This document shows positions 3,908 to 49,448 of a DNA stretch of 64,000 bases, in pieces (positions within the stretch are counted from its first letter, which is position 1; the number at the start of each line of letters is the position of its first letter). The stretch comes from an uncultured Actinomycetes bacterium. Lineage in GTDB: Bacteria; Actinomycetota; UBA4738; HRBIN12. The stretch is taken from assembly GCA_963723855.1 (NCBI GenBank), contig CAVRSI010000015.1, positions 195,553-259,552 of the forward strand. Reading direction: 5' to 3'. Made by a program: the position numbers and the translations under genes. The notes beneath the pieces are model-generated. The model had not been told where the DNA came from, searched no databases, and saw only the letters and a program-made list of their open reading frames with translations.

Positions 3908-4268
3908 CTACGACGCGAACTCGAACCGGGGGTTCACCATGCGAACCTCGCCGCGCTTGTCCCCCAGCACCCCTTCGACGATGACCTTCGTTCCCAGCGT
4001 CATCCCCTGGATCCCTCGCCGCCCCATGAACACGATGTTCGCGTCGCCGGTCCCGTCGTAGAGCAGCGCCTCGAGCGTCTCCTGCCCCTCGACGGGGAAG
4101 ACCGTGATCCGCCGAACCACGCCGGCGAGCTTCACCGGCTCCCGGAGCGGCGCTTCGGCGATGCGCGTCGTGCCCGGCACCTTCTCCGCCCAGCCGCGGA
4201 TCTCCGGCCGAAAGGCGTGCCTCGTCGCTCTCCTTCAGCCGGTCGAAGAAGCGACGGAAGACTGCCAT
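3908..4268 (-). CDS. OB-fold nucleic-acid-binding domain protein (actinobacterial type); one frame break near 4198-4212
   Basis: The N-terminus MAVFRRFFDRLKESDEARLSA (start of ORF 3489..4268) joins EIRGWAEKVPGTTRIAEAPLREPVKLAGVVRRITVFPVEG...MVNPRFEFAS (ORF 3908..4180) after a 1-nt shift. The family assignment is from memory of mycobacterial homologues. Confidence 0.6.
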
Positions 4269-4277
4269 GCTTCGGTG

Positions 4278-6543: not shown

Positions 6544-6605
6544 CGAACCTCCTCGAGATGTGTGGGAGCGTGCCTCTCTCACCCGACCGGGCCGGGAACG
6601 CGTGA

Positions 6606-6611
6606 AGTATA
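6606..6611 (-). promoter_or_regulatory. Candidate -10 box TATACT upstream of hppA, inside a 10-mer (CCTATACTTC) shared with the riboswitch at 15560
   Basis: The coding-strand sequence TTCATTGCCTATACTTCACG lies about 60 nt upstream of the hppA ATG. An identical CCTATACTTC occurs at 15566-15575. No convincing -35 was found. Confidence 0.3.
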
Positions 6612-6660
6612 GGCAATGAACTGGTCGCCGACCTGCGAGAACGGTGGCTCAGCGACAGGA

Positions 6661-7023
6661 TCAGCGGGCGATCCAGTAGCCGAGCCCGGCGACCAAGAAC
6701 GCCGGCGGGCCGGAGAGCAACAGGTTCCAGCCCACGTAGCGCCATGCCCCGTCCTCGATCAGCTGCACCGTCTCGTACGTGAAGGTCGAGAACGTGGTGA
6801 ATCCGCCGATCACGCCGGTGCCGACGAACGTGAGCCATGTCGCCGAGACGTGCCCGGCGGTCGCGGCGCCGACCAGGAGTCCCAAGGCGAAGCTCCCAAC
6901 CAGATTCACCACCAGCGTGCTCAACGGGAACGGGCTGCGTTGGCGGGGAGCGATCACTCCCTCAACCGAATACCGAAGCAGCGCGCCCAACCCGCCACCG
7001 GCGGCAACGGAAAGCGCGATCAT
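6661..7023 (-). CDS. crcB: Fluoride channel CrcB/FluC (distal copy)
   Basis: 120 aa: MIALSVAAGGGLGALLRYSV...LSTLVVNLVGSFALGLL...TGVIGGFTTFSTFTYET. This is the CrcB signature with four TM segments. It has an ATGA overlap with the upstream DUF190 gene. Confidence 0.9.
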   Translation of the reverse strand: MIALSVAAGGGLGALLRYSVEGVIAPRQRSPFPLSTLVVNLVGSFALGLLVGAATAGHVSATWLTFVGTGVIGGFTTFSTFTYETVQLIEDGAWRYVGWNLLLSGPPAFLVAGLGYWIAR

Positions 7024-7361
7024 CCGGGATGGGTTCCCCGGTAGGAACGGACCTCCACCCGTTCGACGGTCACCAGCCCGTCGCCGACCATCGGATCGAT
7101 CTCCTCGATGAACGCGTCGATACGGTCGACCGTGTCGACGATCTCGATCAACAGCGGGAGGTCCTCTGAGAGACGAAGGATGCGTGCGGTGTGCAACCGC
7201 GAGCTGGCGCCGAATCCCTCGATCCCCCGGATCACGGTCGCTCCGGCAAGCCCCCGCTCGTGTGCGAGGTGGACGATCTCCTCGTACAGGGGTTTGTGCT
7301 GCCACGTATCCGATTCCCCGATGAAGATCCGCAACAGCTTGCATTCGCCTTCGAGCTTCAT
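7020..7361 (-). CDS. DUF190 (PII-like) protein, commonly linked to crcB
   Basis: 113 aa: MKLEGECKLLRIFIGESDTWQHKPLYEEIVHLAHERGLAGATVIRGIEGFGASSRLHTARILRLSEDLPLLIEIVD. It is sandwiched between two crcB genes, with ATGA overlaps on both sides. Confidence 0.8.
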   Translation of the reverse strand: MKLEGECKLLRIFIGESDTWQHKPLYEEIVHLAHERGLAGATVIRGIEGFGASSRLHTARILRLSEDLPLLIEIVDTVDRIDAFIEEIDPMVGDGLVTVERVEVRSYRGTHPG

Positions 7362-7732
7362 CGATCCTCCCTCGGCCTCGCCGGACCGAACCGTCCGGTC
7401 CAGATCCCGTAGACCCCCGCCGCCTGACCGGCGACCAGCGTGGCGAGCCAATACACGAGCGCCGTCCGTACATGGCCCGTATCGATGAGCTTGACCCCTT
7501 CCACGGCCATCGTCGAGAAGGTCGTGTAGGCGCCGAAGAACCCGATCGCGACCAAGGGGCGCATGAATCGGGTCGGCCTGAGCCGCTCGGAAAGCAACAC
7601 GGCGACGACGCCCAGCCCGAACGCCCCGGTGACGTTGACGAAGAACGTCGCCCACGGGAACGCCCCTTGATCGCCGGCGAACGCAAGGCCGATCCGCCAT
7701 CGGGCGAGCGCTCCCACGGCGCCGCCGACCAT
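7358..7732 (-). CDS. crcB: Fluoride channel CrcB/FluC (proximal copy); an alternative GTG start at 7765
   Basis: MVGGAVGALARWRIGLAF...WATFFVNVTGAFGLGVV...IGFFGAYTTFSTMAVEG matches CrcB. Paired crcB genes suggest a heterodimeric channel. Confidence 0.85.
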   Translation of the reverse strand: MVGGAVGALARWRIGLAFAGDQGAFPWATFFVNVTGAFGLGVVAVLLSERLRPTRFMRPLVAIGFFGAYTTFSTMAVEGVKLIDTGHVRTALVYWLATLVAGQAAGVYGIWTGRFGPARPREDR

Positions 7733-7829
7733 GACCGCCGCGGTCCGTGCATGCGAAGGCTTCACGATCGCCGAGCGTCTCAGACGGCCAGGTTCCATCG
7801 AGGCGATGCACCGATCGTGGCGCCTGTTC

Positions 7830-8366
7830 TCAAAGCTCGTCTCGCTTGCGGAAGAAGGCGACCGCAGCACGCCGCCGGCTCTCGTTCGAGACGTACTGAG
7901 GACGTTCGTAGGCGTCGACCGCAAGCGTCCCTTGCCAGTCGATGAACGGCTCGATGGTCGAGTGGTCGATCCCAGCCGCAGCCGCCTCTTCCTCGAGCCG
8001 ACGCAATTCGGTCCGCAAGCGTTGCGCCTCCAACTTCAGGAGCGGCACGATATCTCGGTCGAGCTTGATATACGCCAGGAACGCTTCGCGCTCAGCCTCC
8101 TCGGACACCGCGAACCGCGCACGGTTGGTCACGAGCAGGATGCGCAGCTCCGCAACTGACGCGGCGGATGCGGCGCACCGGATCCTCAGACCTTCGATCC
8201 TGGAACGACCGGTGTCACCGCTTCCGCTGAACGCGGGATCATCCTCAGCCACGATGCGGACCCCTCTGTCGCACGCTTCCGCGATCAACGCCTCCTGGGA
8301 AAGCTCCGGGCGTACCGCCTTCGCGCGGTCAAGATCGGCCTTGAAGATCCTCATGGGCTCGCTCAC
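7830..8366 (-). CDS. Hypothetical protein (178 aa from GTG 8366, or 174 aa from ATG 8354), second gene behind riboswitch A
   Basis: Clean ORF: (VSEP)MRIFKADLDRAKAVRPELSQEALIAEACDRGVRIVAEDD...LKLEAQRLRTELRRLEEEAAAAG...FFRKRDEL. GTG 8364-8366 overlaps the stop of the upstream gene (GTGA). I recognise no family. Confidence 0.6.
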   Translation of the reverse strand: MSEPMRIFKADLDRAKAVRPELSQEALIAEACDRGVRIVAEDDPAFSGSGDTGRSRIEGLRIRCAASAASVAELRILLVTNRARFAVSEEAEREAFLAYIKLDRDIVPLLKLEAQRLRTELRRLEEEAAAAGIDHSTIEPFIDWQGTLAVDAYERPQYVSNESRRRAAVAFFRKRDEL

Positions 8367-8830
8367 GTACTGCCCTCGCCGATCGCAGCGCGAAGGGCGA
8401 CGATCCGGGCTCGGTACGCGTCGATATCCCGTTGCAGACGGGGGAGCATCCAATCGACGGTCTGCTCGATCTCTCTTCGATACATCCGCGTGGACAATTC
8501 GCGCTTGCGGGTTTCCTTCGAACCATCGAACCAGGCGTAGCGGGTCACTGGGATCAGGGACTCCACAGATCTCACCACGTTCTCCAGGCGGTCGAGACGC
8601 TCTTCGTCCGTCGGGAGGCTGCTTAGCTCAGCCTCCACGACGATGTCGAAAAGGCCGGCTTCCAGGATGAACCGTCGCTCGGACGTGTCGATCGGCATGG
8701 CGGGCGACTCGGGCTCGGCGACGTCGATGAACTCCTCGGCGACGTATTCGTAGTCCAGGTCGCGCACCATCGGACGTAACGATCCGAGGTCGGGAGTGGG
8801 TCGCTTGAGCGAGTGATCCGATCCGGTCAT
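8363..8830 (-). CDS. Hypothetical acidic protein (155 aa), first gene behind riboswitch A
   Basis: ORF: MTGSDHSLKRPTPDLGSLRPMVRDLDYEYVAEEFIDVAEPES...RMYRREIEQTVDWMLPRLQRDIDAYRARIVALRAAIGEGST. The ATG lies only 2 nt after the GGAGG of the riboswitch platform, so the start could instead be the internal Met at 8770. I recognise no family. Confidence 0.6.
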   Translation of the reverse strand: MTGSDHSLKRPTPDLGSLRPMVRDLDYEYVAEEFIDVAEPESPAMPIDTSERRFILEAGLFDIVVEAELSSLPTDEERLDRLENVVRSVESLIPVTRYAWFDGSKETRKRELSTRMYRREIEQTVDWMLPRLQRDIDAYRARIVALRAAIGEGST

Positions 8831-8898
8831 GGCCTCCTACCTCGATCCGGTAGGAGCCATCAGCTCAGCGTGAGCGGGTTCGGCGAGCTCCATCGCCC
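8831..8898 (-). promoter_or_regulatory. Fluoride riboswitch (crcB motif), copy A: aptamer 8849-8898 plus an SD-sequestering helix
   Basis: Minus-strand RNA: GGGCGAUGGAGCUCGCCGAACCCGCUCACGCUGAGCUGAUGGCUCCUACC-GGAUCGA-GGUAGGAGGCC-AUG. Elements are P1 GGCG/CGCC, loop GAUGGAGCU, an AAC linker, P3 GCUCA/UGAGC, CUGAU, and a 3' GCUCC complementary to the loop GGAGC (pseudoknot), then CCUAC. CUCCUACC pairs with GGUAGGAG and masks the SD. A TAAGAT -10-like box is at 8910-8915. Confidence 0.8.
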
Positions 8899-8968
8899 TT
8901 CGACATCACATCTTAAGCCCTCAACCGGTTCGGCGCGTCCGTTCCGAGCTCGGTGTCAGCGGCATGAT

Positions 8969-10491
8969 CTACTGCCCGAGGTCAGTGGCCGTCCGCCCTT
9001 CGGTGTCCCGGGCGGTATCGAAGATGCGCCAGTAGGCGTCCTCGCCGAAGCTGGTTGGCAATGGTTCACCTTCGATGAGTCGGAACGTGCGCCGACCGTC
9101 GGGCTGCCGTTCGGCGCGAAGGAAGTAGGCAGTGTCCAGCTGCTGGATGTAGAAGCCGTGCGCGAGGTCGAACAGGTGCGTGACGAAGAAGACCTTGACG
9201 CCGGCATCTATCGATGCGCGGACGACTTGCCGGGCGATCTCGGAGCCCTCTCGCTCGTTCGTTGCCGAGAACGACTCGTTGCACAGCAAGAGGGAGTTCG
9301 GCGTGATCATGTCGGCGAGGTCGCTCATCCTCCCGAGCTCTTCGTCCAGCTTGCCGCTCTGCATCGTGACGTCTTCTCCTCGTTTGAAGTGCGTGAAGAC
9401 ACCGGTACAGACGTTGGCGCTGAAGGACTCCGCACCGACGAACATCCCGCTCTGCATCATCAGTTGCGCCGATCCGACGCTGCGCAGGAACGTCGACTTG
9501 CCGCCCTGGTTGGCGCCGGTGATCATGACGAGCAGCTTGCTCGCCGCTGTGACGTCATTGCCGACGACATCGTTCGCCACGCTCAGCGCCAGACAAACGT
9601 CGTACATCCGTCGAGCGGTGAGCGACGGGCGATCCTCAACGATGGGCATCGGGAAGGACGTCGGCTCTCCCTTCGCCGTCAGGCGTTCGTGCACATTCAC
9701 GCAGCCGATGTAGAAGCCGGTTTCCGCCCGCAACAGATCGAAGAAGCTGCGGATGTAATCGGCGGACTGAGCGAGCACGTTGGCAACCTGGTTGATCCTT
9801 TCGCTCGCAGGTCGCCCAGCGCCCTCGCCCCGCTCTCGTCGCGATCCGCGATCTGGAAGCTGAGGCCGGACCTGCCCCTGCGAGTGATCCGCTGCCTCCA
9901 GCTCAGCGTGGGGAGCGTCCGCAGCACGTAGTGGACGCCCTTGTTGCCCCTCCCGAGCTCGGCACTCATCAAGACGCCGCGCTCGAACCGCAACTCCTCG
10001 AGACGATCCTCGATGGTTCGGAAGTACGCGTCGTCCAGCTCCTCCGCGAGCATCGCGAAGAAACGCACGAAGCCATCGGACCGGAACCCTCCGGCGTGAT
10101 CGTCCGCGAGCCTGCGAAGCTGCCTGAGCGAACCCACGAACACCTCCATGGACTGGAGCGATCGCGTGAGGACGGCTTGCGGGGACATGAACGCGCCCCA
10201 GATCTTCTTCTCTTCCATGATCGCGCCGGCGGCGACCTGATAGATCTGTCTGACGACGGACGGTCGCTCCAGGCAGTCGGTCAGCACGTGCTGCCGGTAG
10301 ATGATCGCCTCCGGGCTCGTCAGGCTCGTCAGAACGGCCTTCCTCGCCACGTCGAACAGGAACGGGTCACCGGCCGCCATCGCGTTGAAGAGGATGTTCA
10401 GCTCGAGGTCTTGGGTGAGCGATCCTTCGTTCGACGGGAGTTCGCGCTGGAGGTCGAAGTCATCGTCCTCGTACATCAGGAAAGCCTTCAT
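8969..10491 (-). CDS. MutS-related ABC-type ATPase B (MutS domains III/V only); one frame break near 9796-9800
   Basis: The N-terminal half is ORF 9697..10491 (MKAFLMYEDDDFDLQRELPSNEGSLTQDLELNILFNAMAAGDPFLF...). The C-terminal half is ORF 8969..9778 (Walker A ITGANQGGKSTFLRSVG, LLLCNESFSATNEREG, Walker B/signature region). The two join as ...LRAKG-INQVANVLAQSADYIRSFF. There is no mismatch-binding domain I and no Smr/nuclease domain. Confidence 0.8.
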
Positions 10492-12020
10492 CGCACGTAT
10501 CCGCCTCCGCAGCGTCTCGTACGTAGGCCGTACTTCTCGGCGATGGCAGCGGCATAGGCAAGTCCGTCTGCGGGCTTCCTGGTGATCTTAACGTTCGCGT
10601 CGCGGGGTCATCGGGCACGACCGCGCTCACCATGCTGACCGTGACCTCGCTGAGGGAGGACAGCTCGTCCATGAAGGTCACGCACACGCACAACGAGTGC
10701 AACGCGATCAACCGATCCGTCACTTCCGTGCCGAGGAACACGGCGTCACGAAGCGAGGTCGAGTTGAAGCTCTCGTTCATGATGACGACGCTGTCGCTGG
10801 TCGCCAGGCGGAGGATTCGTGGAAGCTACCAGTTCATCCTCGAGCTTTCCGCGGAGGGTCGCGAGGTTCTCTTCCCGTTCGAAATGCGCGAAGACGTGAT
10901 CGGGCAGGGAGAGGTGCGCTGCCTTCGCAGGAACGAGACAACCGAGGTTGGCGAGATGATGCAGCTGGCCGAACATCCGTGCGAACGTCGTCTTCCCGCC
11001 TTGGTTCGGACCGGTAACGACGATGACGCGTTCCGGCTCCGTGAGATCGAACGAGTTGCACACGACCTCCGAACCCTGCGGGACGAGCTTGTTGGCGAGC
11101 GCGAGATCGAACGCATCGTGTGCGAACACGTGCTTCGCGCGAACGGACACGTGCGGGTAGCAGAACGGCAATCCGGCCGATCGGAACCGCTTGGCGTGCT
11201 CGAGATATGCCAGGTAGAACTGCACCTCCCGATCGAAGGTGCCGATGATCTGATCGAGGTAGTCACGGTGACGCACGCGATACTCGTCCAGCGCTCGCGA
11301 GACGTCGGGATACAGCTGTGCCACCAACTCGAACACGCGAGCTTCAACGGGATCCATGTCCAGCGAAGCAGTGAGTTTGACCCGGTGATCCCCCACGGCG
11401 CCGTGCTTGAACTTCGCGAACGTCTCCACGACCTCTGCGCTGAAGTCAGGCTCTCCCTCGTACCTGCTGACCGTGACCCGGTTCCCAGCGATGTGAACGC
11501 AGTACTTCACCGAAGCCAAGGCGTCCTTCAGCTCACGCGTTGCCGATATGAGTGACGTGAACGTCACGGACGCGGTGTAGTCCAGGATGTAGTCGCGGAA
11601 CGCCCGCAGGCCACGTGATGTCAATCCGAGAGATGCGAACCCTTCAGCCAGCGATCGAACCGCGTCGCAGTAGACCTCCACCGCCTCAACGAACCAACGC
11701 TTCTTCTGCGATGTGTAGTAGAGCTTCTCCACCTGAGCGAGATGCGCGCGCATCTCCTGCATGCGTCGCGAGAAGGCCTGGATGGCTTCCATGACCGCGC
11801 CATCCTCGAGGTCACGGAATACCTCATGCCGGTAGTACACGGCTTCGACGTCGCGCAACGGCGTGTAGAAGAAGGGCTTCAGTTGGTACTCGTCGCGACC
11901 GGCCGTTATCGACTCCACCACCTGATCGAGATTCAGGTCGCGGAAGAACCCGGGCTCTTCGAGCTCGTCGATCACGACGCTGCTCGGAGGCTGGTCGAAG
12001 AGGACGCTGTGGAACCGCAC
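10488..12020 (-). CDS. MutS-related ABC-type ATPase A (MutS domains III/V only); at least two frame breaks (10586-10594, 10818-10832); start revised to GTG 12020 (or 12032)
   Basis: ORF 10746..12164 contains (V)RFHSVLFDQPP...PGFFRDLNLDQVVESI and Walker A VTGPNQGGKTTFARMFG. It continues in ORF 10460..10780 (VIMNESFNSTSLRDA...VCVTFMDEL) and then in a third frame (KITRKPADGLAYAAAIAEKYGL...). The stop TGA 10488-10490 overlaps the ATG of ATPase B. The first 44-48 codons of the track ORF are occupied by riboswitch C and its leader. Confidence 0.75.
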
Positions 12021-12153
12021 GTCCCGACGCACCGGAGAGCCGTTCGGGTTCCGGAGCCTGCCGAGCTCCTGGGTCCCTCCGCCGGTGAAGGATCCTCGCT
12101 CGCTCGTGATACGCCTCCTTCCGCTGACGTCCGAAGCGCCCCGAGGGGCAGCC

Positions 12154-12202
12154 GTAGAAGCCATCAGCGTCGGAAGACGCGGTTCAGGCGAGCTTCATCG
12201 CC
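12154..12202 (-). promoter_or_regulatory. Fluoride riboswitch (crcB motif), copy C, aptamer; leader extends to about 12021
   Basis: Minus-strand RNA: GGCGAUGAAGCUCGCCUGAACCGCGUCUUCCGACGCUGAUGGCUUCUAC. Elements are P1 GGCG/CGCC, P3 GCGUC/GACGC, and loop GAAGC paired with 3' GCUUC. That pseudoknot carries a compensated double change relative to GGAGC/GCUCC in copies A and B. A TAACAT -10-like box lies at 12209-12214, 6 nt upstream. An SD-like GGAAGGAGG near 12114-12122 has no canonical start after it. The first in-frame GUGs are at 12032 and 12020. Confidence 0.75.
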
Positions 12203-12247
12203 ACCCCGATGTTAGCCCAGGAGGCGACGGACGGATGGCCTCGACCG

Positions 12248-12874
12248 CTATCCGTCTGACGTCGATCCCGCGAGCAGGCCGATGATGCGTCGCGCCGCGA
12301 GCGAGCGTTGTTCCGGGTCGTTGGCCGAGACTCGGGCGCGCGCGCTGAGCGCGAGGAGGGAGCGACGCTGCGTCGCGATGAGGAACCGCAGAGTGGACCG
12401 ACCGGGGCGAGTCCGACCGCCATGCTGAGATGCGGCCGGCAGATGCCGGTCGACACCTGATAGGCGGCGAGCACGTCGGGCTCGGCGAGCGCGTCGAAGA
12501 GCATCCCGAGCACCGACCGCCCTCGACGTTCTACCGCCGCGCATACGGGACACGCAGGTGGCCCCTCGGCCACACCCGCTCCGAAGTCCTCCGAGGCGGC
12601 CTGAGCAGATCCGCGAAAGGAGCCGCGCGCCCGCCGCCCCCAGATCCCCTCCTCGTCGGTCGAACACGCTCGCCCAGTGGGGCGCACAGAGTCCGCGGGA
12701 GTCGACGGTCTTGTCAATCGTCTCCTCTTCCCGGATGTTCGTGGTCGCGAGCCACGACAGGACCGCCCGTTCGGTCTCCCCCGCCAGCCGGCAGACGGGA
12801 CATCCGTCGCTACGAAGTGCGAGACCGAGCTCGGCCTCGAGGAGAATCTCGCGGAGAGGTTTCCGCTTCGTCAC
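12248..12874 (-). CDS. Hypothetical protein with two CPVC motifs (putative zinc-binding); two frame breaks (12398-12408, 12599-12614)
   Basis: Reconstructed from ORFs 12248..13243 and 12184..12717: VTKRKPLREILLEAELGLALRSDGCPVCRLAGETERAVLSWLATTNIREEETIDKTVDSRGLCAPHW...ARLLSRI / AQAASEDFGAGVAEGPPACPVCAAVERRGRSVLGMLFDALAEPDVLAAYQVSTGICRPHLSMAVGLAPV / RSTLRFLIATQRRSLLALSARARVSANDPEQRSLAARRIIGLLAGSTSDG. Its GTG start overlaps the phosphatase stop (GTGA). Confidence 0.55.
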   Translation of the reverse strand: MTKRKPLREILLEAELGLALRSDGCPVCRLAGETERAVLSWLATTNIREEETIDKTVDSRGLCAPHWASVFDRRGGDLGAAGARLLSRICSGRLGGLRSGCGRGATCVSRMRGGRTSRAVGARDALRRARRARRARRLSGVDRHLPAASQHGGRTRPGRSTLRFLIATQRRSLLALSARARVSANDPEQRSLAARRIIGLLAGSTSDG

Positions 12875-13504
12875 ATGCGCAGGGAGTCTTGTGCTCGACC
12901 TGCCTGTCGGAACAGGTCTTCGAGGACGGTCGGCACCTGCAGCCCTTCGTCGGTCGCCCGCAGCTCGATCACGGAGCCCGGCGACACGTCCGGGTCCCAA
13001 AACGCCGTTCCTTCGAGCCCCTTCAGACGCACGAGCACCAGCCGGATGAGGAGCTCGTGCGTGACCACGGCCACCGCTCGTTCGGGGTGCCGACCGCCTA
13101 TCGACTCCAGGGCCCTGAATGCACGTCGCTCGGCGGCCGCCATGCTCTCTCCGGAGGGGAAGGTCGCCGCCGCCGGGAACCGGAAGTAGAAGTCGAACGC
13201 TCTCGGCTCCGACTCCCTGATCGAGCGGCGTGCGAGCCACCACGAGCCCACGTCGACATCGGTCAGATCACTTCGATCGGCGTGGAACCACACCGACGGA
13301 ACGCCCGATGACGTCGGCGGTCTCCCGGGCGCGACGCCGGGGACTGGTGTAGATCGCGGAGACGTCCTCGAGAGCCAGACGCTCCGCCGCGCGCCGCGCA
13401 TCGTCCACGCCTTGCGCGGTCAGCGGGTCGTCCGTCTGTCCTTGCAGCCGACCTTCACTACTGAGAGCGGTCCGACCGGCTCGCACCACGAACAACGATG
13501 TCAT
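12871..13504 (-). CDS. Histidine-phosphatase (phosphoglycerate-mutase-like) fold protein with RAG in place of the catalytic RHG; one frame break near 13289-13306
   Basis: N-terminus from ORF 13268..13633: MTSLFVVRAGRTALSSEGRLQGQTDDPLTAQGVDDARRAAERLA...IYTSPRRRARETADVIG. C-terminus from ORF 12871..13401: VWFHADRSDLTDVDVGSWW...FRFPAAATFPSGESM...VAVVTHELLIRLVL. The codons read CGA GCC GGT, that is R-A-G. Confidence 0.7.
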
Positions 13505-13701
13505 CGGGAGCTCCCCCCATGTATGGCTTCCGCCGACGGCACATCCGGTGCGGTACGGATCGACATCGCCACGTGATCCCAGTCGATGCGGAGCAGCTCG
13601 ACCGGTCTGACGCGCGGGACGAACCGATTCCAATCCACGTCGACATCTTCGATCCGTCGCTCGCGCAGCGCAGGCGTCAGGTGCGGATAGGCGGAGGTCA
13701 T
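13501..13701 (-). CDS. Possible separate 66-aa ORF between the dynamin-like and phosphatase genes
   Basis: MTSAYPHLTPALRERRIEDVDVDWNRFVPRVRPVELLRIDWDHVAMSIRTAPDVPSAEAIHGGSSR. GGAGG lies 4 nt upstream of the ATG at 13699-13701. As sequenced it is in frame with the dynamin ORF. Removing one C from the C5 run at about 13712-13716 would end the dynamin gene with an ATGA overlap onto this ATG. Confidence 0.35.
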   Translation of the reverse strand: MTSAYPHLTPALRERRIEDVDVDWNRFVPRVRPVELLRIDWDHVAMSIRTAPDVPSAEAIHGGSSR

Positions 13702-15483
13702 GGCGCCTCCATCACCACCATGACGGGGGCCGGTCGCGGCCGTTTGGAACGCCTCACGGAGCTGGTCGAGCCGGCGTCGATCGACCCGCGCATCTTCCTT
13801 GGCTCGCAGGGCGTCTTCGGCCGACCGCTGCCGATCGCGTTCGGAGCGTTCGAATCCCCGCACCGAGGCTCTCGATGGTCGCTTCCAGGCTCCGGTCCAA
13901 TGCCGATCCAAGGTCACGGCGACTCCGGTCGAGCCGCTGCACGAAGTCCCAGTGAAGGCGTCCCATGTGCTTGTCGACGAGCGAAGGAGTCGCTCCCTCA
14001 AGGTCGCGCAGGAACAGGCGCCGCGCCGTCTCTCGCGGCAGGAACCGGCGAACGTCCGGCAGGATCGACTCGATGATCGATGGAGGTTCGAAGAAGCTGA
14101 AACTGAACGGGGTCCGGAAGACAGCTCGACGAGATGGCCCTCGGAAACGAGCTGGATCCCGAGGATCTCGCCGCACAGCCGGACGGTCTCCCGCTCGGTA
14201 CCGTCCGCCTCCTCGACGAAACGGGCCGTTGCGTCCCGGAACGCGGCGGAGAGCGTCTGCTCCTCGAGTCCGCGCCAGTGGCCGATATCGGTGCGGAGCG
14301 CCTCCCTCAAGAACACGAACCCCTCGTCGTCCCGCGCGATGCGCCGGACGTCCTCAAGCGAGGCAACGTGTTCCTCGACGGCAGACGTCAGGCGGGTCTC
14401 CTCCTCGGAACGAAGCTGTTCCAGATCCTGCTCGAGACGGGACACGAGCGCCTCGGCCTCCTGATCGAGAAGAGCGTGCATGTCGCGTTGTCTCGATCGA
14501 GCCTGGGCGAATACCTCCTGCATGCGCCGACGAGCCTCTTCCAGCTCCTGGACGGGGAGATCGAGCGCCCGCTCCTGCACCTCCAGCGCGTTGCGCTCGT
14601 CGTCCACCAGCCGCAGCGCACGCCCGGCCACGGAGGCCAGGATGGCCCGCCCTTTCTCGTCCAGCAGGAACGTCCGGAAATCACGTTCGAACGCGGGGAG
14701 CCCCGAAGCCTCCAACTCGCGGTCGTCTCCGGCGAGCTTCGCCCGGAGCGCCCGGCGGGCGCTCAAGGGATAGACAACGACGTCCTGCCCGACGGCTTCT
14801 TCGATAACCCGATGTGTGAACGCGATGGACTCGTCACGGTCGAGCCCCGACAGGTAGTCGATCTTGTTCAGGACGAAGAAGAGACGCGCCGTCTCCCCGC
14901 GAACTCCTCGAGGAACGCACGCTCCGTCTCGGAGAATTGGCGGGTCCGCAGAGGTGAGGAAGACGGCGGCGTCGGATTCGGAGAGGAAGGCGCGCGCCGC
15001 CTCGGTGTTGCGCTGGTAAACGCTGCCGACGCCGGGCGTATCGACTAGGAACACCCCGTCACGCAGATCTTCCGACGGGTACGACACCACGGCCCTCGCG
15101 ACCCCCAGCGCATTGTCCGGGTTGCCTCGCTCGGTCACGTACGTAGCGAGATCCGTCACGTCGACGTCCTCTTCGCGGCCGTCGAGATAGCCGATCCGAG
15201 CTCGGATCTCCCTCCCCCACGTCACCGCCGTGACGATCGAGGTGAGTGGCACGACGGCGGAAGGAAGCACGTCTGCGCCGAGGAGTGCATCCACGAACGT
15301 GGTCTTGCCCCGTTTGAACTCGCCGAAGACCACGACGTTGAATCGGTTCTCGACGAGCTTCTTGTCGAGGGCCCGTGCAGCGTCTGTGACGGCCCGGCTC
15401 TCGCGTCGGTCGGCGAACTCGGCGAGATCGTCGAGCGCCACGAGAAGCCTGTCCCGCTCCTCCGCGTAGGTTCGTTGACCCAT
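13699..15483 (-). CDS. Bacterial dynamin-like GTPase (BDLP family); four frame breaks inferred (13855-13862, 14125-14140, and a compensating pair at 14893-14900 / 14932-14938); 3' end uncertain
   Basis: ORF 13501..15483 has G1 VVVFGEFKRGKTTFVDALLG, G3 FLVDTPGVGS and G4 FFVLNKIDYL, followed by long coiled-coil-like stalk sequence. The middle of the C-terminal part is in ORF 13754..14176 (FRTPFSFSFFEPPSIIESILPDVRRFLPRETARRLFLRDLEGATPSLVDKHMGRLHWDFVQRLDRS...). It is the first gene after riboswitch B. Confidence 0.8.
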
Positions 15484-15560
15484 GGAAAAGCTCCTACCTC
15501 TGCATCCAGGTAGGAGCTATCAGCTCGCCGGGGCGAGCGGTTAGGCGAGCTCCATCGCCT
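15484..15560 (-). promoter_or_regulatory. Fluoride riboswitch (crcB motif), copy B: aptamer 15509-15560 plus an SD-sequestering, terminator-like helix at 15484-15520
   Basis: Minus-strand RNA: AGGCGAUGGAGCUCGCCUAACCGCUCGCCCCGGCGAGCUGAUAGCUCCUACC-UGGAUGCAG-AGGUAGGAGC-UUUUCC-AUG. Elements are P1 GGCG/CGCC, loop GAUGGAGCU, an AAC linker, P3 GCUCGC/GCGAGC, CUGAU, and a 3' AGCUCC complementary to the loop GGAGCU, then CCUAC. GCUCCUACCU pairs perfectly (10 bp) with AGGUAGGAGC and masks the SD AGGAG. A TATACT -10-like box lies at 15568-15573, 7 nt upstream. Confidence 0.85.
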
Positions 15561-15649
15561 CACCCGAAGTATAGGGGAGCGGAGGAGCGAACCTTCCCAA
15601 GGATCGCCAACGACGATGGTCGACTCTCCCCGCTCCGTAAACTCGCAGG

Positions 15650-16922
15650 ATGAGCTATCAGATCGATTCGATACGTGCGCTGGAGAGTCCTGGATTCCCG
15701 AGGCAGACCGACGCTGCACGTGACCCTGGGACTCGTCGGAGGCGCGATCGGGACGGCCGGCGTGCCATCCGGCGCGTCGACCGGGACCCGCGAGGCCGTC
15801 GAGAGGCGGGACGGCGACCAGGAGCGGTTCGAAGGCGCGGGCGTCCAGCGGGCCGTCATGACCGTCGAAGGGGAGATCGCGGACGCCGTGACCGGCCGCG
15901 ACTGGGAGTCTCTGGCGGAACTCGATCATGCCCTGATCGGGTTGGACGCAACGCCTAACAAGGAACGGCTCGGCGCGAACGCCATCGTCGGTGTCTCCAT
16001 GGCGGCGGCTCGCGCGATGGCGGCGGCCGACGAGCGTCCGCTCTACGAGTGGCTGGCTCCGTCGGGATACGCGCCACGTCTTCCCGTCCCGCACTTCAAC
16101 GTCATCAACGGCGGGGCGCACGCCGGCAACCAGCTCGCGTTCCAGGAGTTCATGATCGCGCCGATCGGCGCGCCGAGTTTCCGCGAAGCGCTGCGGGCCG
16201 GCGCTGAGACCTACGCCATGCTCCGGCACGGACTGAAGGAGGCCGGCTACGCGACCGGTCTGGGCGATGAAGGCGGCTTCGCTCCGGAGATCTCGGAGCC
16301 GGAGGAGGCGTTGGACCTCCTCGTCGAGGCCATCCGGGCCGCCGGATACGAACCCGGCCGGGACTCGGTCGCGATCGCGCTCGATCCAGCGGCGTCGGGC
16401 TTCCGTGCGGAAGACGGCATGTACGAGGTGACCGAGGCACGGCTGACCTCGGCGGAGATGACCGAGCGCTACGCGCAGATGGTGGACCGCTATCCGGTGT
16501 GGTCGATCGAGGACGGGCTCGCGGAAGACGATCCGGAAGGGTGGACCGAGTTGACCCAACGCCTCGGCGACCGGATACAGATCATCGGGGACGATAATTT
16601 CGTCACGAACCCGGGCCTCATACGGGAGGCCATCGCGCATGGCATCGGCAACGCTGCGCTCATCAAGCTGAACCAGATCGGGACCGTCACGGAAACCCTC
16701 GAAGCGATCGAGGTCAGCCGATCGGGCGGGTACGCGCAGATGATCTCGCACCGGTCCGGAGAGACATGCGATCCATTCATCGCCGACCTGGCGGTCGCCG
16801 TGGGCTGTGGCCAGATCAAGTCCGGGGCCCCGGCTCGAGGCGAGCGACTCGCGAAGTACAACCGCCTTCTCGAGATCGAGCTGGGGCTGGACCGTCCGAC
16901 GTTCGGCCTCGTACCCAAGTGA
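15650..16922 (+). CDS. eno: Enolase, divergent copy (SHRSGETCD instead of SHRSGETED); one extra base near 15683-15687
   Basis: ORF 15675..16922 has VLDSRGRPTL, VPSGASTGTREA, GDEGGFAP, LIKLNQIGTVTET, SHRSGETCDPFIADLAV and RGERLAKYNRLLEIE. The canonical N-terminus MSYQIDSIRALE is in ORF 15650..15958, one frame off. It joins as ...IRALE-VLDSRG. Confidence 0.9.
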
Positions 16923-17413
16923 GCTTCGAAGGGTCCGCGCTTTGGCGCGTCCGGCAGAAGATCGGGCACGACCTCCTGCTGTGGCCGGGCGCGACCGTGC
17001 TCCTGGAAGACGCGGACGGACGGATCCTCCTGGGTCTGCGGCGCGACAACGACGAGTGGACGATGCCCGGAGGCGGTGCCGAGGAAGGCGGGAGCTTCGC
17101 CGCGACGGCGCTCGACGAGTTGCGGGAAGAGGTGGGGCTCGAGGCCGACGCAGCGGACCTGGTCGCGTTCGCATGCGTCTCGGAGTCCGCCGACCACCTG
17201 ATCCCGTACCCGAACGGAGACCTCACCCACTACTTCGGCATCTGGTTCGTGCTCCGCCGGTGGCGGGGCGAGCCGGAGGCCGATGGCGACGAGCTCGTCG
17301 AGCTCGGGTGGTTCTCCCGCGACGCGCTCCCCGAGCCGTTGATGCACAGCTCGGCCGTGGCGCTCCGGCACTACACGGCGTACCTGGAGTCAGGCGTCTT
17401 CCAGATCGGCTGA
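16919..17413 (+). CDS. NUDIX hydrolase
   Basis: The Nudix box is GGGAEEGGSFAATALDELREEVGL. Its GTG start overlaps the eno stop (GTGA at 16919-16922). Confidence 0.75.
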   Translation: MSFEGSALWRVRQKIGHDLLLWPGATVLLEDADGRILLGLRRDNDEWTMPGGGAEEGGSFAATALDELREEVGLEADAADLVAFACVSESADHLIPYPNGDLTHYFGIWFVLRRWRGEPEADGDELVELGWFSRDALPEPLMHSSAVALRHYTAYLESGVFQIG

Positions 17414-18793
17414 GGGTGGTGACTCGGCGGCCTCGACGGGCCTGGTCCCCGATGTGCGGCGCAACCATACGAAACCGATAGGTCCCGCCAGGATCGCCGT
17501 CAGCAGGATCCCGATCTTCGCTTGCTCGACCGCTCCGGGCTGCCCGACGAAGGCCACATCAGCCACGAACAACGAAACCGTGAACGCGACGCCAGCGGCC
17601 GCGGCCACGGCGAATATGCTTCCGAGTCGTGCCCCGTCGGGTAGCCGCCCGATCCCGAGCCGAACCGTGAGCCACACCCCTCCCCCGATCCCCACGATCT
17701 TTCCCACCACGTGGCCGCTCACCACCCCAAGCGTCACCGGACTCCTGAGCGCATCGGCGACCGCATCGACGGATAGTGGTATGCCCGCGTTCGCCAACGC
17801 GAACAGCGGAAGCACCACGATCGTCGCCATAGGGAGGAGCAGGTGCTCCATCCTTGCGAGCGGCGACACAGCCTCTTTCGAGAGCCAAGCGAGCTGCAAC
17901 CACCAACGCGCATCGGCGTCGGGCGGGTCGGGTTCGTCAACGGTCTCATCGGCGACACGGATCGCTTCCTCGCGCACGTGGCGGGGTCGCTGGAGCGGGA
18001 ATGCCGGCGTGAGCAGCCCCACCACCACGCCCGCGAGGGCAGGCTCCACGCCCGAGGCATCGAGCGACAACCACATCGCCACTCCCAACGCCGCGAAGAT
18101 CGCCATCGAACGAACGCCGAGACGTCGGATCAGCACCATCGCGCCGGCCACGCCGATCGCCAGCAGGAGTGCTGGGAACCGGATGAGGGACGGATAGAAC
18201 ACCGCGATCACGACGACGGTGAGGATGTCGTCCACGATCGCCAGCGTGAGCACGAAGGCCCGAAGGCCGACCGGAGCGTTCCGGATGGCGAGCGCGAGGA
18301 TCCCCAGCGTGAACGCGATATCGGTCGGCATCGCGATCCCCCACCCCCGCGAACCAGCCCCGCCTCTGTTCACGAGCAGATAGATCAGAGCGGGCACGAC
18401 CATCCCTGCGACCGCAGCGATGACGGGGAGCGCTGCCGCGCGCACATCCCGCAGTTCACCGATCAATACCTCGCGCTTGATCTCCAGCCCGACGACGAGG
18501 AAGAAGAACGACATCAATCCGTCGTTCACCCACGCTCGCAGGCTGTCGTTGACTGTCCAGCTGCCCACGCCGAGAGAGATCGGGGTGCGCCATAGCCGCA
18601 CGTAGCTTTCGGCGAGCGGCGAGTTCGCCCATACCAATGCAACGACCGCCGCGGCGACGAGCAGGATCCCGCCTGACGTCGAGGACTCGAGGAACTCCTG
18701 AAGTGGGCGCACGACGCGGCGCGGCACAGCACGGTTCGACTGCGCCCACGAGGGCCGGATCGCGGGGCCGGGTCTGGGGGTGTCGTTCGCCAT
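17390..18793 (-). CDS. nhaA: Na+/H+ antiporter NhaA (copy 1)
   Basis: 467 aa with ...LVWANSPLAESYVRLW...NDGLMSFFFLVVGLEIKREVLIGEL...VPALIYLLVN...AIVDDI..., typical NhaA. Confidence 0.85.
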   Translation of the reverse strand: MANDTPRPGPAIRPSWAQSNRAVPRRVVRPLQEFLESSTSGGILLVAAAVVALVWANSPLAESYVRLWRTPISLGVGSWTVNDSLRAWVNDGLMSFFFLVVGLEIKREVLIGELRDVRAAALPVIAAVAGMVVPALIYLLVNRGGAGSRGWGIAMPTDIAFTLGILALAIRNAPVGLRAFVLTLAIVDDILTVVVIAVFYPSLIRFPALLLAIGVAGAMVLIRRLGVRSMAIFAALGVAMWLSLDASGVEPALAGVVVGLLTPAFPLQRPRHVREEAIRVADETVDEPDPPDADARWWLQLAWLSKEAVSPLARMEHLLLPMATIVVLPLFALANAGIPLSVDAVADALRSPVTLGVVSGHVVGKIVGIGGGVWLTVRLGIGRLPDGARLGSIFAVAAAAGVAFTVSLFVADVAFVGQPGAVEQAKIGILLTAILAGPIGFVWLRRTSGTRPVEAAESPPSADLEDA

Positions 18794-18819
18794 CGTGGAT
18801 CTAGGCGCCCCGACGGTGA

Positions 18820-20211
18820 TCAGCGCGGTCCATCAAGGCCGGCTCTCGCCTCACGGCGACCGATCTGGAGGAAGAAGAATCCGAAGACACCCGACAGGAG
18901 CGAAGCGGCGAACACACCGATCTTCGCTTCGGCGAGGCTCGCGGATCCCTCGCCGAACGCGAGCTCCGCGATGAAGAGCGCCACGGTGAACCCGATCCCC
19001 GCCACCTGGCCTACCCCCACCAGATCTCGGGAGGTGGCTCCGGTCGGGAGGGATCCGTGGCCCGCTCGCGTGGCGATCGACGCAGCCCCCCACACGCCGA
19101 CCAGCTTTCCGACGACCAACCCGAGGACGATCCCGAGGGTGACGCGGCTCCCCATCGCATCTCGCAGGACGCTCGCAGAGAGTCGGATCCCCGAGTTCGC
19201 CAGAGCGAACAGCGGCAAGACGACGAAGCTCGTCCATGGCAGGAGCGTGTGCTCGACCCGCGCGAGGGGGGACACAGCCTCCCTGGACAGCCACGAGAGT
19301 CGCATCCAGGAGTCGGCGTCCGCGTCGGGAGGACGGGGATCGTCGACGGTTTCGTCGGCCGTGCGCCGGGCCTCCTCGCTCACGTGTCGAGGGCGCTGGA
19401 ACGGCCTGACCGGGGTGAGGAGGCCGAGGATCACCCCGGCAAGGGTCGCTTGCACTCCCGATTCGAACATGGCGAACCACAAGCAGGTTCCGAGCACCAG
19501 ATACACAGCAGTTGCACGCACGTGGATCCGCTGGAGGCCGACGATGGCGAGGATGATGACCACGGCGGCCGCGATGGCCGGCCACTCGACGCCCTCCGAA
19601 TAGAACAGGGCGATGATGACGATCGCCCCGATGTCGTCGACGATCGCGAGGGTGAGCAGGAAGGGTCTGAGGTCCGTCGGTGCATGCCTCGCAGCAAGCG
19701 TCAGAACCGCTAGCGCGATCGCGATGTCCGTCGCCATGGGAACGCCCCAACCACGGACGTCTGTCGTGCCTCGATTCACTCCCACGTAGATGAGGGCCGG
19801 CACCACCATCCCGCCGATCGCTCCGACGATCGGGACGGACGCTGCGCGCCAATGCTGCAGCTCCCCGGTCACCAGCTCGCGTTTGATCTCCAGACCGACC
19901 ACGACGAAGAACAAGGCCATCAGACCGTCCGTCACCGCGTGGCGGAGGTCTTCCGATATGTGACGAGCGCCGACATGCAAGGAGATGGGGGTCGTCCACA
20001 GACGCTCATACGCATCCCGCCATGGTGAGTTCGCCCACACGATCGCGACGATCACCGCCAAGAGCAGGACGACCGCGCTGGCCGACGAGGTTTGCAGGTA
20101 TGCCTGGAGCGGGCGGAGCACGATCCGGGGGACGGGACGCTCGGACTGCGCCCACGGAAGGTTGATGCCGGATCCGGCACGCTCGTCGTCTTGCCTGCTG
20201 GTCGGTGCCAT
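18820..20211 (-). CDS. nhaA: Na+/H+ antiporter NhaA (copy 2, tandem paralogue); the ORF extends to 20247
   Basis: IVWANSPWRDAYERLW...TDGLMALFFVVVGLEIKRELVTGEL...AIVDDIGAIVIIALFY. It lies 26 nt upstream of copy 1 on the same strand. Confidence 0.85.
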   Translation of the reverse strand: MAPTSRQDDERAGSGINLPWAQSERPVPRIVLRPLQAYLQTSSASAVVLLLAVIVAIVWANSPWRDAYERLWTTPISLHVGARHISEDLRHAVTDGLMALFFVVVGLEIKRELVTGELQHWRAASVPIVGAIGGMVVPALIYVGVNRGTTDVRGWGVPMATDIAIALAVLTLAARHAPTDLRPFLLTLAIVDDIGAIVIIALFYSEGVEWPAIAAAVVIILAIVGLQRIHVRATAVYLVLGTCLWFAMFESGVQATLAGVILGLLTPVRPFQRPRHVSEEARRTADETVDDPRPPDADADSWMRLSWLSREAVSPLARVEHTLLPWTSFVVLPLFALANSGIRLSASVLRDAMGSRVTLGIVLGLVVGKLVGVWGAASIATRAGHGSLPTGATSRDLVGVGQVAGIGFTVALFIAELAFGEGSASLAEAKIGVFAASLLSGVFGFFFLQIGRREARAGLDGPR

Positions 20212-20338
20212 GCGTCGCACTCCTGCCGACCAGACTTCCCGGCGCACCTTCGGACCGGCACATGCTACCCCGGGTCACATCCCTTCACGAGTTCCTCACA
20301 CGGGTTCGGTTGTTGCTCAACGAGAGCGCCCGTACGCT

Positions 20339-49417: not shown

Positions 49418-49448
49418 GTCGCTTCCTCCTCGATCGGTCGACGTTCGC

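Follow-up and report, generated by a model that had tools for sequence, protein, structure and literature searches.

The window analyzed here, the whole 64,000-nucleotide stretch of DNA, carries on its minus strand a gene for a dynamin-like GTPase of the BDLP/IniA type (13698..15483; ~594 aa after repair of four single-base indels), which leads an operon headed by a fluoride riboswitch aptamer, RS1 (15504..15568, minus strand). The genes of this operon are joined by ATGA stop-start overlaps, and three follow the dynamin gene on the same strand: a small ORF of 66 aa (13501..13701), which overlaps the dynamin stop at one end and the phosphatase start at the other; a histidine phosphatase gene (12871..13504), split by indels in the assembly and assigned from Pfam matches to His_Phos_1 on both halves together with tblastn mapping; and a gene for a Cys-rich DUF6062 protein (12250..12870), the last of the operon, which contains indels and has approximate ends. 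The 66-aa ORF had no match in Pfam and is conserved only in the loci of the two closest relatives (L001 and L002), at 63-81% amino acid identity.

The operon is part of a ~16-kb fluoride island with three riboswitches. Downstream on the minus strand, RS2 (12148..12211; 45.2 bits against the Rfam model) precedes two tandem genes for MutS-like ATPases (9017..12130; A at ~12130-10524 and B at ~10491-9017, with indels in each), and RS3 (8844..8906; 52.6 bits) is followed by a five-gene operon (6661..8836) that encodes an unnamed 144-aa-type protein (8363-8836), an unnamed 188-aa-type protein (7830-8453), CrcB (~7358-7740), DUF190 (~7020-7400) and a second CrcB (~6661-7040). An enolase gene (15675..16922, plus strand), with Pfam matches to Enolase_N and Enolase_C, diverges from RS1. 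Besides the dynamin gene, the island thus holds CrcB channels, DUF190, the MutS-like pair and enolase, and also an H+-pyrophosphatase, a Nudix protein and two NhaA antiporters.

RS1 matches the Rfam fluoride riboswitch family RF01734 across all 64 model positions with 49.0 bits, where the cut-off is 34 (E 1.5e-10), scores 66 bits on a covariance model built in this analysis, and contains P1, P3 and the pseudoknot; from its end to the ATG of the dynamin gene at 15483 is 20 nt on the same strand. Across 80 riboswitches of family loci, 97.6% of cells are paired, and compensatory changes occur in 10 of 14 pairs spanning P1, P3 and the pseudoknot, in an alignment fitted to a model of P1 and P3 that leaves the pseudoknot outside. 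This covariation was reached by none of 500 shuffles, and pairing in slid controls was at most 59%. The putative expression platform is an 11-bp hairpin read from the sequence (15490..15517, minus strand), whose 5' arm (GCUCCUACCU) is the 3' pseudoknot strand of the aptamer and whose 3' arm (AGGUAGGAGC) holds the Shine-Dalgarno sequence AGGAG (15495-15491), 7 nt ahead of the ATG. The minimum-free-energy fold of the leader has an energy of -45.1 kcal/mol (z -3.25). Across 17 Actinomycetota loci the hairpin is kept, with 92.9% of positions paired versus at most 57% in slid controls; covariation in these 17 loci was zero, which we attribute to both arms being constrained for other reasons.

Simple scans near RS1 in the window revealed neither a sigma-70 promoter nor a terminator, and the hairpin is followed by no more than a U4 tract, too short for a terminator; we therefore read control in the window as translational. 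As predicted from this architecture, RS1 is a translational ON switch for the dynamin operon. Without fluoride, the 3' strand of the aptamer (CUCCUACC) would pair with the Shine-Dalgarno sequence and block translation; with fluoride bound, that strand would be kept in the aptamer pseudoknot, freeing the Shine-Dalgarno sequence and allowing translation of the dynamin, the 66-aa ORF, the histidine phosphatase and the DUF6062 protein. In Bacillota, the same aptamer would instead work by anti-termination. In the isolate Pelotomaculum propionicicum MGP, a promoter, a riboswitch and a terminator that overlaps the aptamer 3' strand are followed by a single, monocistronic dynamin gene. These features show a canonical fluoride riboswitch through which intracellular fluoride would gate dynamin expression, and we infer from them that the gene is induced by fluoride. 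An earlier note on this DNA had described the dynamin as the lead gene behind a fluoride riboswitch that masks its Shine-Dalgarno sequence; the first part is borne out by the Rfam match and by recurrence across phyla (below), and the second by the predicted 11-bp pairing of the aptamer 3' strand with the region that holds AGGAG.

The identity of the gene product as a dynamin is clear. Translated from the ATG at 15483, the ORF matches the Pfam Dynamin_N profile PF00350 at 82.3 bits, well over the cut-off of 27 (E 5.2e-23), and covers profile positions 1-167 of 168, which places the GTPase domain at 14863..15336 on the minus strand (aa 50-207). On that strand the window ORF encodes G1 as GEFKRGKTT (15298-15324), G3 as DTPG (15031-15042) and G4 as NKID (14857-14868), with the switch-I threonine present within PLTS; in a 45-member family alignment, G54, G59, T62, T81, D148-G151, N206 and D209 are invariant. 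A profile of the family matches the Nostoc BDLP 2J68 (E 2.4e-38, residues 34-418), and also Cj-DLP and IniA. Since the window copy is frame-broken, we examined the fold on a homolog that is 68% identical (P0003). Its AF2 model (pLDDT 81.3, pTM 0.65) matched IniA 6J72 (E 5.9e-21) and BDLP 2J69 (E 7.6e-20) in Foldseek, in each case at full length over ~600 columns. The Dynamin_N match, the 2J68 profile match and the fold match of the homolog model all uphold the note's assignment of a BDLP-type dynamin GTPase. The data show that the protein is a member of a distinct, widely distributed BDLP subfamily whose members are ~590 aa in length and combine a GTPase domain with a neck and trunk of four helices and a loop at the tip, in the fold of IniA and BDLP.

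A conserved aromatic and hydrophobic motif, TPFSFSFFEPPSIIESILPDV (14050..14113, minus strand; in a shifted frame in the window), has the family consensus TRFxFSFFExPTILESxLPDV and maps in the model to a low-confidence loop (450-473) at the end of the helical trunk. Transmembrane helix prediction on the dynamin protein returned none, and the hydrophobicity of the tip is just moderate; given its position in the model, we regard the motif as a candidate membrane-inserting loop.

The riboswitch-dynamin arrangement recurs widely. In GTDB genomes, 47 of the 50 closest homologous loci have a same-strand fluoride riboswitch upstream of the dynamin gene, within 160 nt of the start in 37 of the 47. Across 80 GTDB loci, a same-strand riboswitch within 400 nt upstream is strong in 39 and weak in 5, and in 11 it lies further upstream in the operon; Rfam confirmed the riboswitches on a sample of these loci. 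Riboswitch-linked loci span about 12 phyla and one archaeon, and at least two cultured organisms carry the gene. Linkage is found in every clade of the family tree but one, a Myxococcota sister clade taken as out-group, in which none of 17 loci has a riboswitch. A search of plasmids recovered mostly distant, generic BDLPs, the one informative case being a Lichenicola plasmid on which the dynamin gene adjoins a riboswitch-controlled crcB. Membrane transporters are often co-transcribed in family loci (an MFS transporter in 21 and a Na+/H+ exchanger in 13). The frequent company of MutS-like ATPases and uncharacterized soluble proteins could point away from the membrane.

The described regulon of fluoride riboswitches includes crcB, eriC-F, Na+/H+ antiporters, enolase, pyrophosphatase, MutS-like proteins, HAD and USP proteins and formate hydrogen lyase. 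With these genes the dynamin gene shares the aptamer class and regulatory logic, as well as common islands and operons. A dynamin-like GTPase is absent from the regulon classes given in Weinberg 2010 (PMC2864571), a 2024 review (PMC11139923) and Sherlock and Breaker 2020 (PMC7266159), the three sources that this negative covers. In the searchable literature, the terms dynamin, riboswitch and fluoride never occur together, nor does "fluoride riboswitch" with dynamin, in agreement with the note's remark that no link between BDLPs and halide stress was known. Because the gene recurs behind fluoride riboswitches in dozens of unrelated microbes, we conclude that this dynamin subfamily forms a widespread arm of the response to fluoride stress, one that is absent from the searchable literature. 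The physiological role of most BDLPs is unclear because the signals that induce them are not known; here, for a whole subfamily, the predicted inducing input, fluoride, is defined, chemically simple and legible from sequence alone, making function directly testable. The finding takes the fluoride response past export, pH control and the replacing of enzymes that fluoride inhibits, in the direction of mechanochemistry, of membranes or otherwise, and draws attention to several uncharacterized co-regulated proteins: DUF6062, the two unnamed families and the MutS-like pair.

Characterized dynamins offer a guide to function. IniA, an isoniazid-inducible dynamin-like protein of the iniBAC operon, acts in membrane fission and drug tolerance. 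No structure matches the family model better than the Mycobacterium protein (PDB 6J72/6J73), which resembles the family in its size, its G domain and its neck/trunk helical bundle. IniA is also stress-induced and has a lipid-interacting tip loop, to which the candidate loop of the family would correspond, yet sequence identity is ~17% and the tip motif differs. The inducer also differs, being cell-wall stress acting through a protein regulator for IniA and, as predicted here, fluoride acting through RNA. Neither iniB nor iniC was found among the neighbors of family genes, which instead include the small ORF, His_Phos_1, DUF6062, MFS, Na+/H+ exchanger and MutS-like genes. Among solved structures the best sequence match is the BDLP of Nostoc punctiforme (PDB 2J68/2J69/2W6D), which has a KRGK(S/T)T-type P-loop and a full-length fold match to the family, but exceeds family members by ~100 aa in length and possesses a defined paddle. 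Our functional model is taken from stress-protective bacterial dynamins such as DynA of Bacillus subtilis, a two-headed, constitutively expressed fusion; a role in sealing or repairing membranes under antibiotic and phage stress has been proposed for these proteins. We know of no riboswitch or fluoride context for the Nostoc BDLP.

We propose that the locus encodes a fluoride-switched dynamin-like GTPase, translation of which would be gated by fluoride and which probably serves membrane maintenance under fluoride stress. We infer the membrane role from the example of IniA and DynA, both of which guard the membrane under envelope stress; the known biology of IniA, DynA and BDLP, the conservation of an aromatic tip where the trunk ends and the co-transcribed transporters all point in this direction. 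In such a model, the aromatic tip would attach the protein, once induced by fluoride, to the cytoplasmic membrane, and GTP-driven assembly would then seal, excise or reorganize membrane while fluoride stress lasts, with the co-induced transporters acting in parallel. The earlier note had likewise offered membrane repair under HF influx, and a GTPase cycle sensitive to metal fluorides, as possible rationales. We know of no direct damage to membranes by fluoride.

The alternative with the most in its favor, though we consider it unlikely, is that the gene is induced because of what fluoride does to GTPases. Metal fluorides inhibit or trap GTPases, since in GDP-MgF3- and GDP-AlF4- they imitate the transition state and thereby keep dynamin G-domain dimers locked. 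The cell might make the protein to replace an activity inhibited in this way, as with enolase and pyrophosphatase, or fluoride trapping might drive the protein's own assembly. The catalytic motifs are fully conserved, and GDP-AlFx and GDP-BeFx states are standard in dynamin biochemistry; where papers name bacterial dynamin together with fluoride, the latter serves solely as a reagent of this kind. The riboswitch-controlled enolase and H+-pyrophosphatase of the island are, moreover, classic fluoride-inhibited enzymes (PMC11139923). Against this, nearly all members of the subfamily are riboswitch-linked, which argues for a dedicated stress protein and not a spare housekeeping copy; the active site cannot be told by its sequence from that of other BDLPs; and a protein could not plausibly sequester millimolar fluoride stoichiometrically. 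A specific and decidedly long-shot extension is that the subfamily, besides being induced by fluoride, is a fluoride effector at the protein level: intracellular F- and Mg2+ might trap GDP-bound G domains in a transition-state-like dimer, so that fluoride itself would trigger assembly of the dynamin at the membrane, where it could reduce the entry of HF, shed membrane that is damaged or organize the co-induced transporters. If true, this would be the first dynamin with a mechanochemical cycle physiologically gated by an inorganic anion.

The neighboring MutS-like genes raise the improbable alternative that the dynamin works off the membrane, in an NTPase module with the MutS-like pair; it might, for example, act on the nucleoid, or reactivate or chaperone phosphoryl-transfer enzymes that fluoride has poisoned. 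In 13 loci, drawn from 5 phyla, the tandem pair adjoins the dynamin gene; in two Xanthobacteraceae loci (L046 and L049) the pair is co-transcribed, with overlapping stops and starts. The MutS-like proteins also show a weak resemblance to the KamC reactivase ATPase. Yet every characterized protein of this fold, from IniA, BDLP and DynA to the mitofusins, acts on membranes, and many dynamin loci, monocistronic units included, are without MutS-like genes.

A further question concerns the integrity of the window copy. Three-frame translation and DNA alignment with the two closest relatives map four indels to the dynamin gene (+1 at 14936, -1 at 14905, -1 at 14115 and +1 at 13854), which put aa 183-195 and about 462-600, some 150 codons, out of frame. 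As assembled, the frame meets no stop and runs on to 13501 (660 aa); the true stop is probably the TGA at 13700-13698, where the ATG of the following ORF overlaps it, for a family-like length of ~594 aa. The ORF given in the earlier note, 13699-15483, therefore holds up at its end, which matches this probable stop within 1 nt, but not as a clean frame, which is interrupted by the single-base indels, probably artefacts. Searches by tblastn with homologs aligned straight through the shifted stretches without marking the frame breaks. Together with the further indels that interrupt the phosphatase gene, the DUF6062 gene and the two MutS-like genes, these four could signify a decaying pseudogene, leaving the riboswitch in control of a dead gene in this organism, a reading that we consider quite improbable. 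Of the 20 island indels specific to the window, nine are no more than 2 nt away from a GATC site of the relatives, where 12.5% is the background (p 3e-4), and the closest relatives, which are the same kind of long-read MAG, carry indels elsewhere. The indels occur as compensating pairs, in-frame stops are absent, and the out-of-frame stretches still encode conserved family sequence. Taken together, the GATC bias, compensating pairs, absence of stops and conserved sequence are the signature of motif-associated nanopore basecalling error, and the indels thus look like GATC-associated nanopore assembly errors and not decay.

That the juxtaposition arose by chance, or that a phage-defense dynamin of the LeoA/LeoBC type happens to lie near a riboswitch serving other genes, as distant PADLOC matches to LeoA and LeoBC (36-54 bits) and the enolase gene on the other side of RS1 might hint, is scarcely credible when the riboswitch lies on the dynamin strand, the predicted hairpin sequesters the dynamin Shine-Dalgarno sequence, no Leo gene is paired with the single family gene, whose neighbors are fluoride-stress genes, and the layout recurs in monocistronic units as well as in most of the closest loci. 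We rejected the PADLOC defense reading, for which the weak Leo matches were the only hits, and recurrence effectively refutes it together with the chance reading; the note's concern that the arrangement might be a one-off is answered by the same 47 of 50 loci across phyla. The association also emerges from the opposite direction, as the note had suggested it might be sought: among 82 metagenomic fluoride riboswitches chosen regardless of the downstream gene, the lead gene is a dynamin in 4 (~5%), a MutS-like gene in 5 and an enolase in 2, so that in this sample the frequency of dynamin as lead gene of environmental riboswitches is comparable to that of the MutS-like and enolase classes, which have long been known.

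Taken singly, the window's dynamin gene and the riboswitch ahead of it belong to known families and are unremarkable there; the novelty lies in their coupling, which defines a subfamily of bacterial dynamin-like proteins (BDLPs) by an ion-sensing riboswitch. The earlier note, made from the sequence alone, knew of no link between such proteins and halide stress, and our search of the open-access literature (7.7 million papers) and bioRxiv likewise returned no paper that brings dynamin, riboswitch and fluoride together, beyond a possible bare listing in Baker 2012 or its supplement. The GTPase is not among the genes listed in the motif discovery paper (PMC2864571), in a 2020 review of former orphan riboswitches (PMC7266159) or in a 2024 fluoride-resistance review (PMC11139923).

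Three full-length fluoride riboswitches lie on the minus strand: RS1 (15504-15568, 49.0 bits), RS2 (12148-12211, 45.2 bits) and RS3 (8844-8906, 52.6 bits), against an Rfam gathering score of 34. RS1 stops 20 nt short of the dynamin ATG, and the RNA of its leader includes GCUGAUAGCUCCUACCUggaugcagAGGUAGGAGCUUUUCCAUG. The 3' pseudoknot strand of the aptamer, GCUCCUACCU (15517-15508), and the stretch AGGUAGGAGC (15499-15490) are complementary; the latter contains the Shine-Dalgarno (SD) sequence AGGAG 7 nt ahead of the ATG. The minimum-free-energy fold of the leader combines P1 and P3 with an 11-bp SD hairpin (-45.1 kcal/mol, z -3.25). This pairing is kept in 17 Actinomycetota relatives, where 92.9% of cells pair, compared with at most 57% for a slid partner; covariation of the hairpin was sought in the same 17 relatives and none was found, because other constraints act on both arms. 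Neither a terminator nor a sigma-70 promoter was predicted at the RS1 leader. The best reading of RS1 is thus a translational ON switch, in which bound fluoride would keep the 3' strand within its pseudoknot, leaving the SD free. Since the 3' strand is predicted to pair with the SD and would release it on fluoride binding, the earlier description of a riboswitch-masked SD is right.

To gauge conservation, we retrieved 80 loci that encode relatives, taking a single genome for each GTDB species (fetched loci carry handles from L001 on; L001 and L002 are the two closest relatives), and searched them for riboswitches by pattern, by Rfam on a sample, which reached the gathering score in 10 of 11 loci, and with a covariance model trained on the confirmed hits. 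In 39 of the 80 loci, the 400 nt ahead of the dynamin start include a strong fluoride riboswitch on the same strand, typically at 10-50 nt, and in five a weak one; in a further 11 it is 0.5-5.6 kb away on the upstream side, beyond intervening genes. Of the 50 closest loci, 47 have a riboswitch upstream of the dynamin gene; the pairing is not the one-off juxtaposition that the earlier note had named as a refuting outcome. Several apparent negatives do have an aptamer of variant form, either with long insertions or with GCUAAU as its core. Linked loci span Actinomycetota, Bacillota, Desulfobacterota, Armatimonadota, WS1, Aquificota, Alphaproteobacteria, Acidobacteriota, Gemmatimonadota, Chloroflexota and Dormibacterota, as well as one Methanobacteriota archaeon. 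In a neighbour-joining tree, linkage occurs in all clades but one, a Myxococcota clade in which none of 17 loci has a riboswitch and an M48-like peptidase gene adjoins the dynamin gene at each, pointing to a different conserved partnership; in this sister clade (among L051-L080) the peptidase gene always comes first.

P1, P3 and the pseudoknot covary clearly across the 80 best riboswitches of the fetched loci: 97.6% of cells pair, 10 of 14 pairs carry compensatory changes, and 0 of 500 shuffles gave as high a value. Variant fluoride-like aptamers stand ahead of dynamin genes at L061 (5779-5900), L079, L065 and L078 (~5554-5610), L070 (5841-5921) and L027 (5889-5945); some have a ~70 nt insertion between P1 and P3, and others read GCUAAU where GCUGAU is nearly invariant.

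In the isolate Pelotomaculum propionicicum MGP, a promoter close to consensus (TTGACT-17-TATAAT) precedes the aptamer; next come a terminator that overlaps the aptamer's 3' strand, and the dynamin gene, with convergent genes directly after. The same layout recurs at a second Pelotomaculum locus and at one Aquificota locus, so the dynamin gene is itself the riboswitch's target, not a passenger. What the two parts are, how they are arranged and that this arrangement is conserved are all shown by these comparisons; fluoride-dependent ON regulation of the gene is what we infer from sequence. The earlier note had also proposed a survey of genes behind fluoride riboswitches. Among 82 listed instances on metagenome contigs, chosen by aptamer pattern alone and biased to GGCG-type aptamers, dynamin is the first downstream gene in four and the second, behind DUF6062, in one more; other first genes include a Na+/H+ exchanger (10), CrcB (10, under-detected with few reference sequences), DUF190 (8), DUF6062 (6), MutS-like (5) and enolase (2), and 31 are unassigned. 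At L003 (5819-5982), L011, L019, L023, L024, L031, L041, L042 and L050, two fluoride riboswitches stand back to back and divergent, 40-250 nt apart, one for the dynamin gene and the other for an operon on the opposite strand (Na+/H+ exchanger, MFS, DUF6062 or MutS-like).

There is good evidence that the window protein belongs to the BDLP class. The reading frame opened by ATG 15483 (-) encodes all the GTPase motifs first noticed (GEFKRGKTT, DTPG and NKID), and its residues 50-207 match Dynamin_N at 82.3 bits against a cut-off of 27 (Pfam, E 5.2e-23), the profile check that had been suggested. A database search returned more than 2,000 relatives, the close ones ~590 aa long, mainly from Actinomycetota MAGs and named 'dynamin family protein' by NCBI. 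In a 45-member family alignment the GTPase motifs are all invariant and a C-terminal motif, TRFxFSFFExPTILESxLPDV, is also kept; the resulting profile matches Nostoc BDLP (2J68, E 2.4e-38), Campylobacter DLP1/2, IniA and mitofusins. An AlphaFold model of P0003, a homolog 68% identical to the window protein (pLDDT 81.3), has a G domain and long paired helices, with a low-confidence loop (450-473) bearing the aromatic motif at the bundle's far end; in Foldseek the model aligns along its entire length with both IniA (E 5.9e-21) and BDLP (E 7.6e-20). No transmembrane helix was predicted, and PADLOC gave only weak LeoA/LeoBC matches. Membrane binding is plausible.

To our knowledge, all characterised proteins with the BDLP/IniA fold act at membranes; IniA and DynA protect membranes under envelope stress. 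Because the fold's known members are membrane-acting, the aromatic tip is kept and transporters are often co-transcribed, we favour a role in fluoride-induced membrane maintenance. Alternatively, the dynamin may compensate for GTPase trapping by metal fluorides or be directly gated by such trapping, or it may act with MutS-like ATPases away from the membrane.

As assembled, the window's ORF (GC of the window, 68%) is 660 aa long (13501-15483, -), not the 595 codons first reported; the stop expected from family length is TGA 13700-13698, within 1 nt of the earlier end point, and it overlaps the next ORF's ATG. Aligned with its homologs (~591 aa), the protein departs from highly conserved sequence at aa 183-195 and ~462-600, and in both stretches the conserved sequence is found in another frame. 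DNA alignment with L001 and L002 traces this to four indels of one base each that only the window has (+1 at 14936, -1 at 14905, -1 at 14115 and +1 at 13854), and a C5 run just upstream of the TGA would supply the final frame shift. Four such events could mark a genuine pseudogene, but we consider this very improbable: island-wide, of the 20 indels specific to the window, 9 fall no more than 2 nt from a GATC site in relatives, where the background is 12.5% (p 3e-4), and L001 and L002, themselves long-read MAGs, have their own indels at different positions. This bias suggests methylation-linked nanopore basecalling errors, not decay. Single-base indels (7700-15570) break most island genes (dynamin, phosphatase, DUF6062 and both MutS-like), and there are possible split ORFs elsewhere in the window, for example 3908-4234/4132-6648 and 49259-50923. 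Third-position GC of island genes (0.76-0.84) is somewhat below that of most other window genes (about 0.85-0.94).

The fluoride island spans ~16 kb (4132-20247), with a three-riboswitch layout common to L001 and L002. Behind RS1, on the minus strand, ATGA overlaps join dynamin, a 66-aa ORF, a histidine phosphatase and DUF6062; behind RS2 are two MutS-like ATPase genes (9017-12130, -); and behind RS3 are two uncharacterised proteins, CrcB, DUF190 and a second CrcB, followed by an H+-pyrophosphatase gene. Enolase, Nudix and two NhaA antiporter genes occupy the island's other side. Recurrent partners across the 80 loci are an MFS transporter (21), DUF6062 (15, three phyla), the MutS-like pair (13, five phyla), a Na+/H+ exchanger (13), histidine phosphatase (8), universal stress protein (8) and small, uncharacterised lineage-specific proteins.

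Several partners merit description. The 66-aa ORF (13501-13701, -), with ATGA stop-start overlaps at both ends, is conserved only in the two closest relatives (63-81% aa identity). DUF6062 (~12250-12870, -) is Cys-rich with repeated CPxC...CxxH motifs, and lies beside dynamin at, for example, L026, L029, L030, L035, L088 and L138, and on both sides of it in Armatimonadota. Tandem MutS-like ATPases (MutS_V only) with their own fluoride riboswitch occur in the window and at L022, L041-L050, L057, L059, L063 and L064, and show weak NCBIfam resemblance to the KamC reactivase ATPase; in Xanthobacteraceae (L046, L049) the pair comes directly behind dynamin, stop codon overlapping start codon. Two families lacking a Pfam match (~144 aa, 8363-8836, -; ~188 aa, 7830-8453, -) sit between RS3 and crcB and, in other Actinomycetota (L005, L007, L013, L015), directly downstream of dynamin; we therefore regard them as further uncharacterised members of the fluoride regulon. 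Finally, on a plasmid of Lichenicola cladoniae PAMC 26569 (L081, NZ_CP053712.1, 6461-9527), a dynamin family gene points away from a crcB gene that is under riboswitch control and unusually long (409 aa), with a universal stress protein gene alongside crcB and IS elements nearby; this cultured acetic-acid bacterium may provide an experimental entry point.
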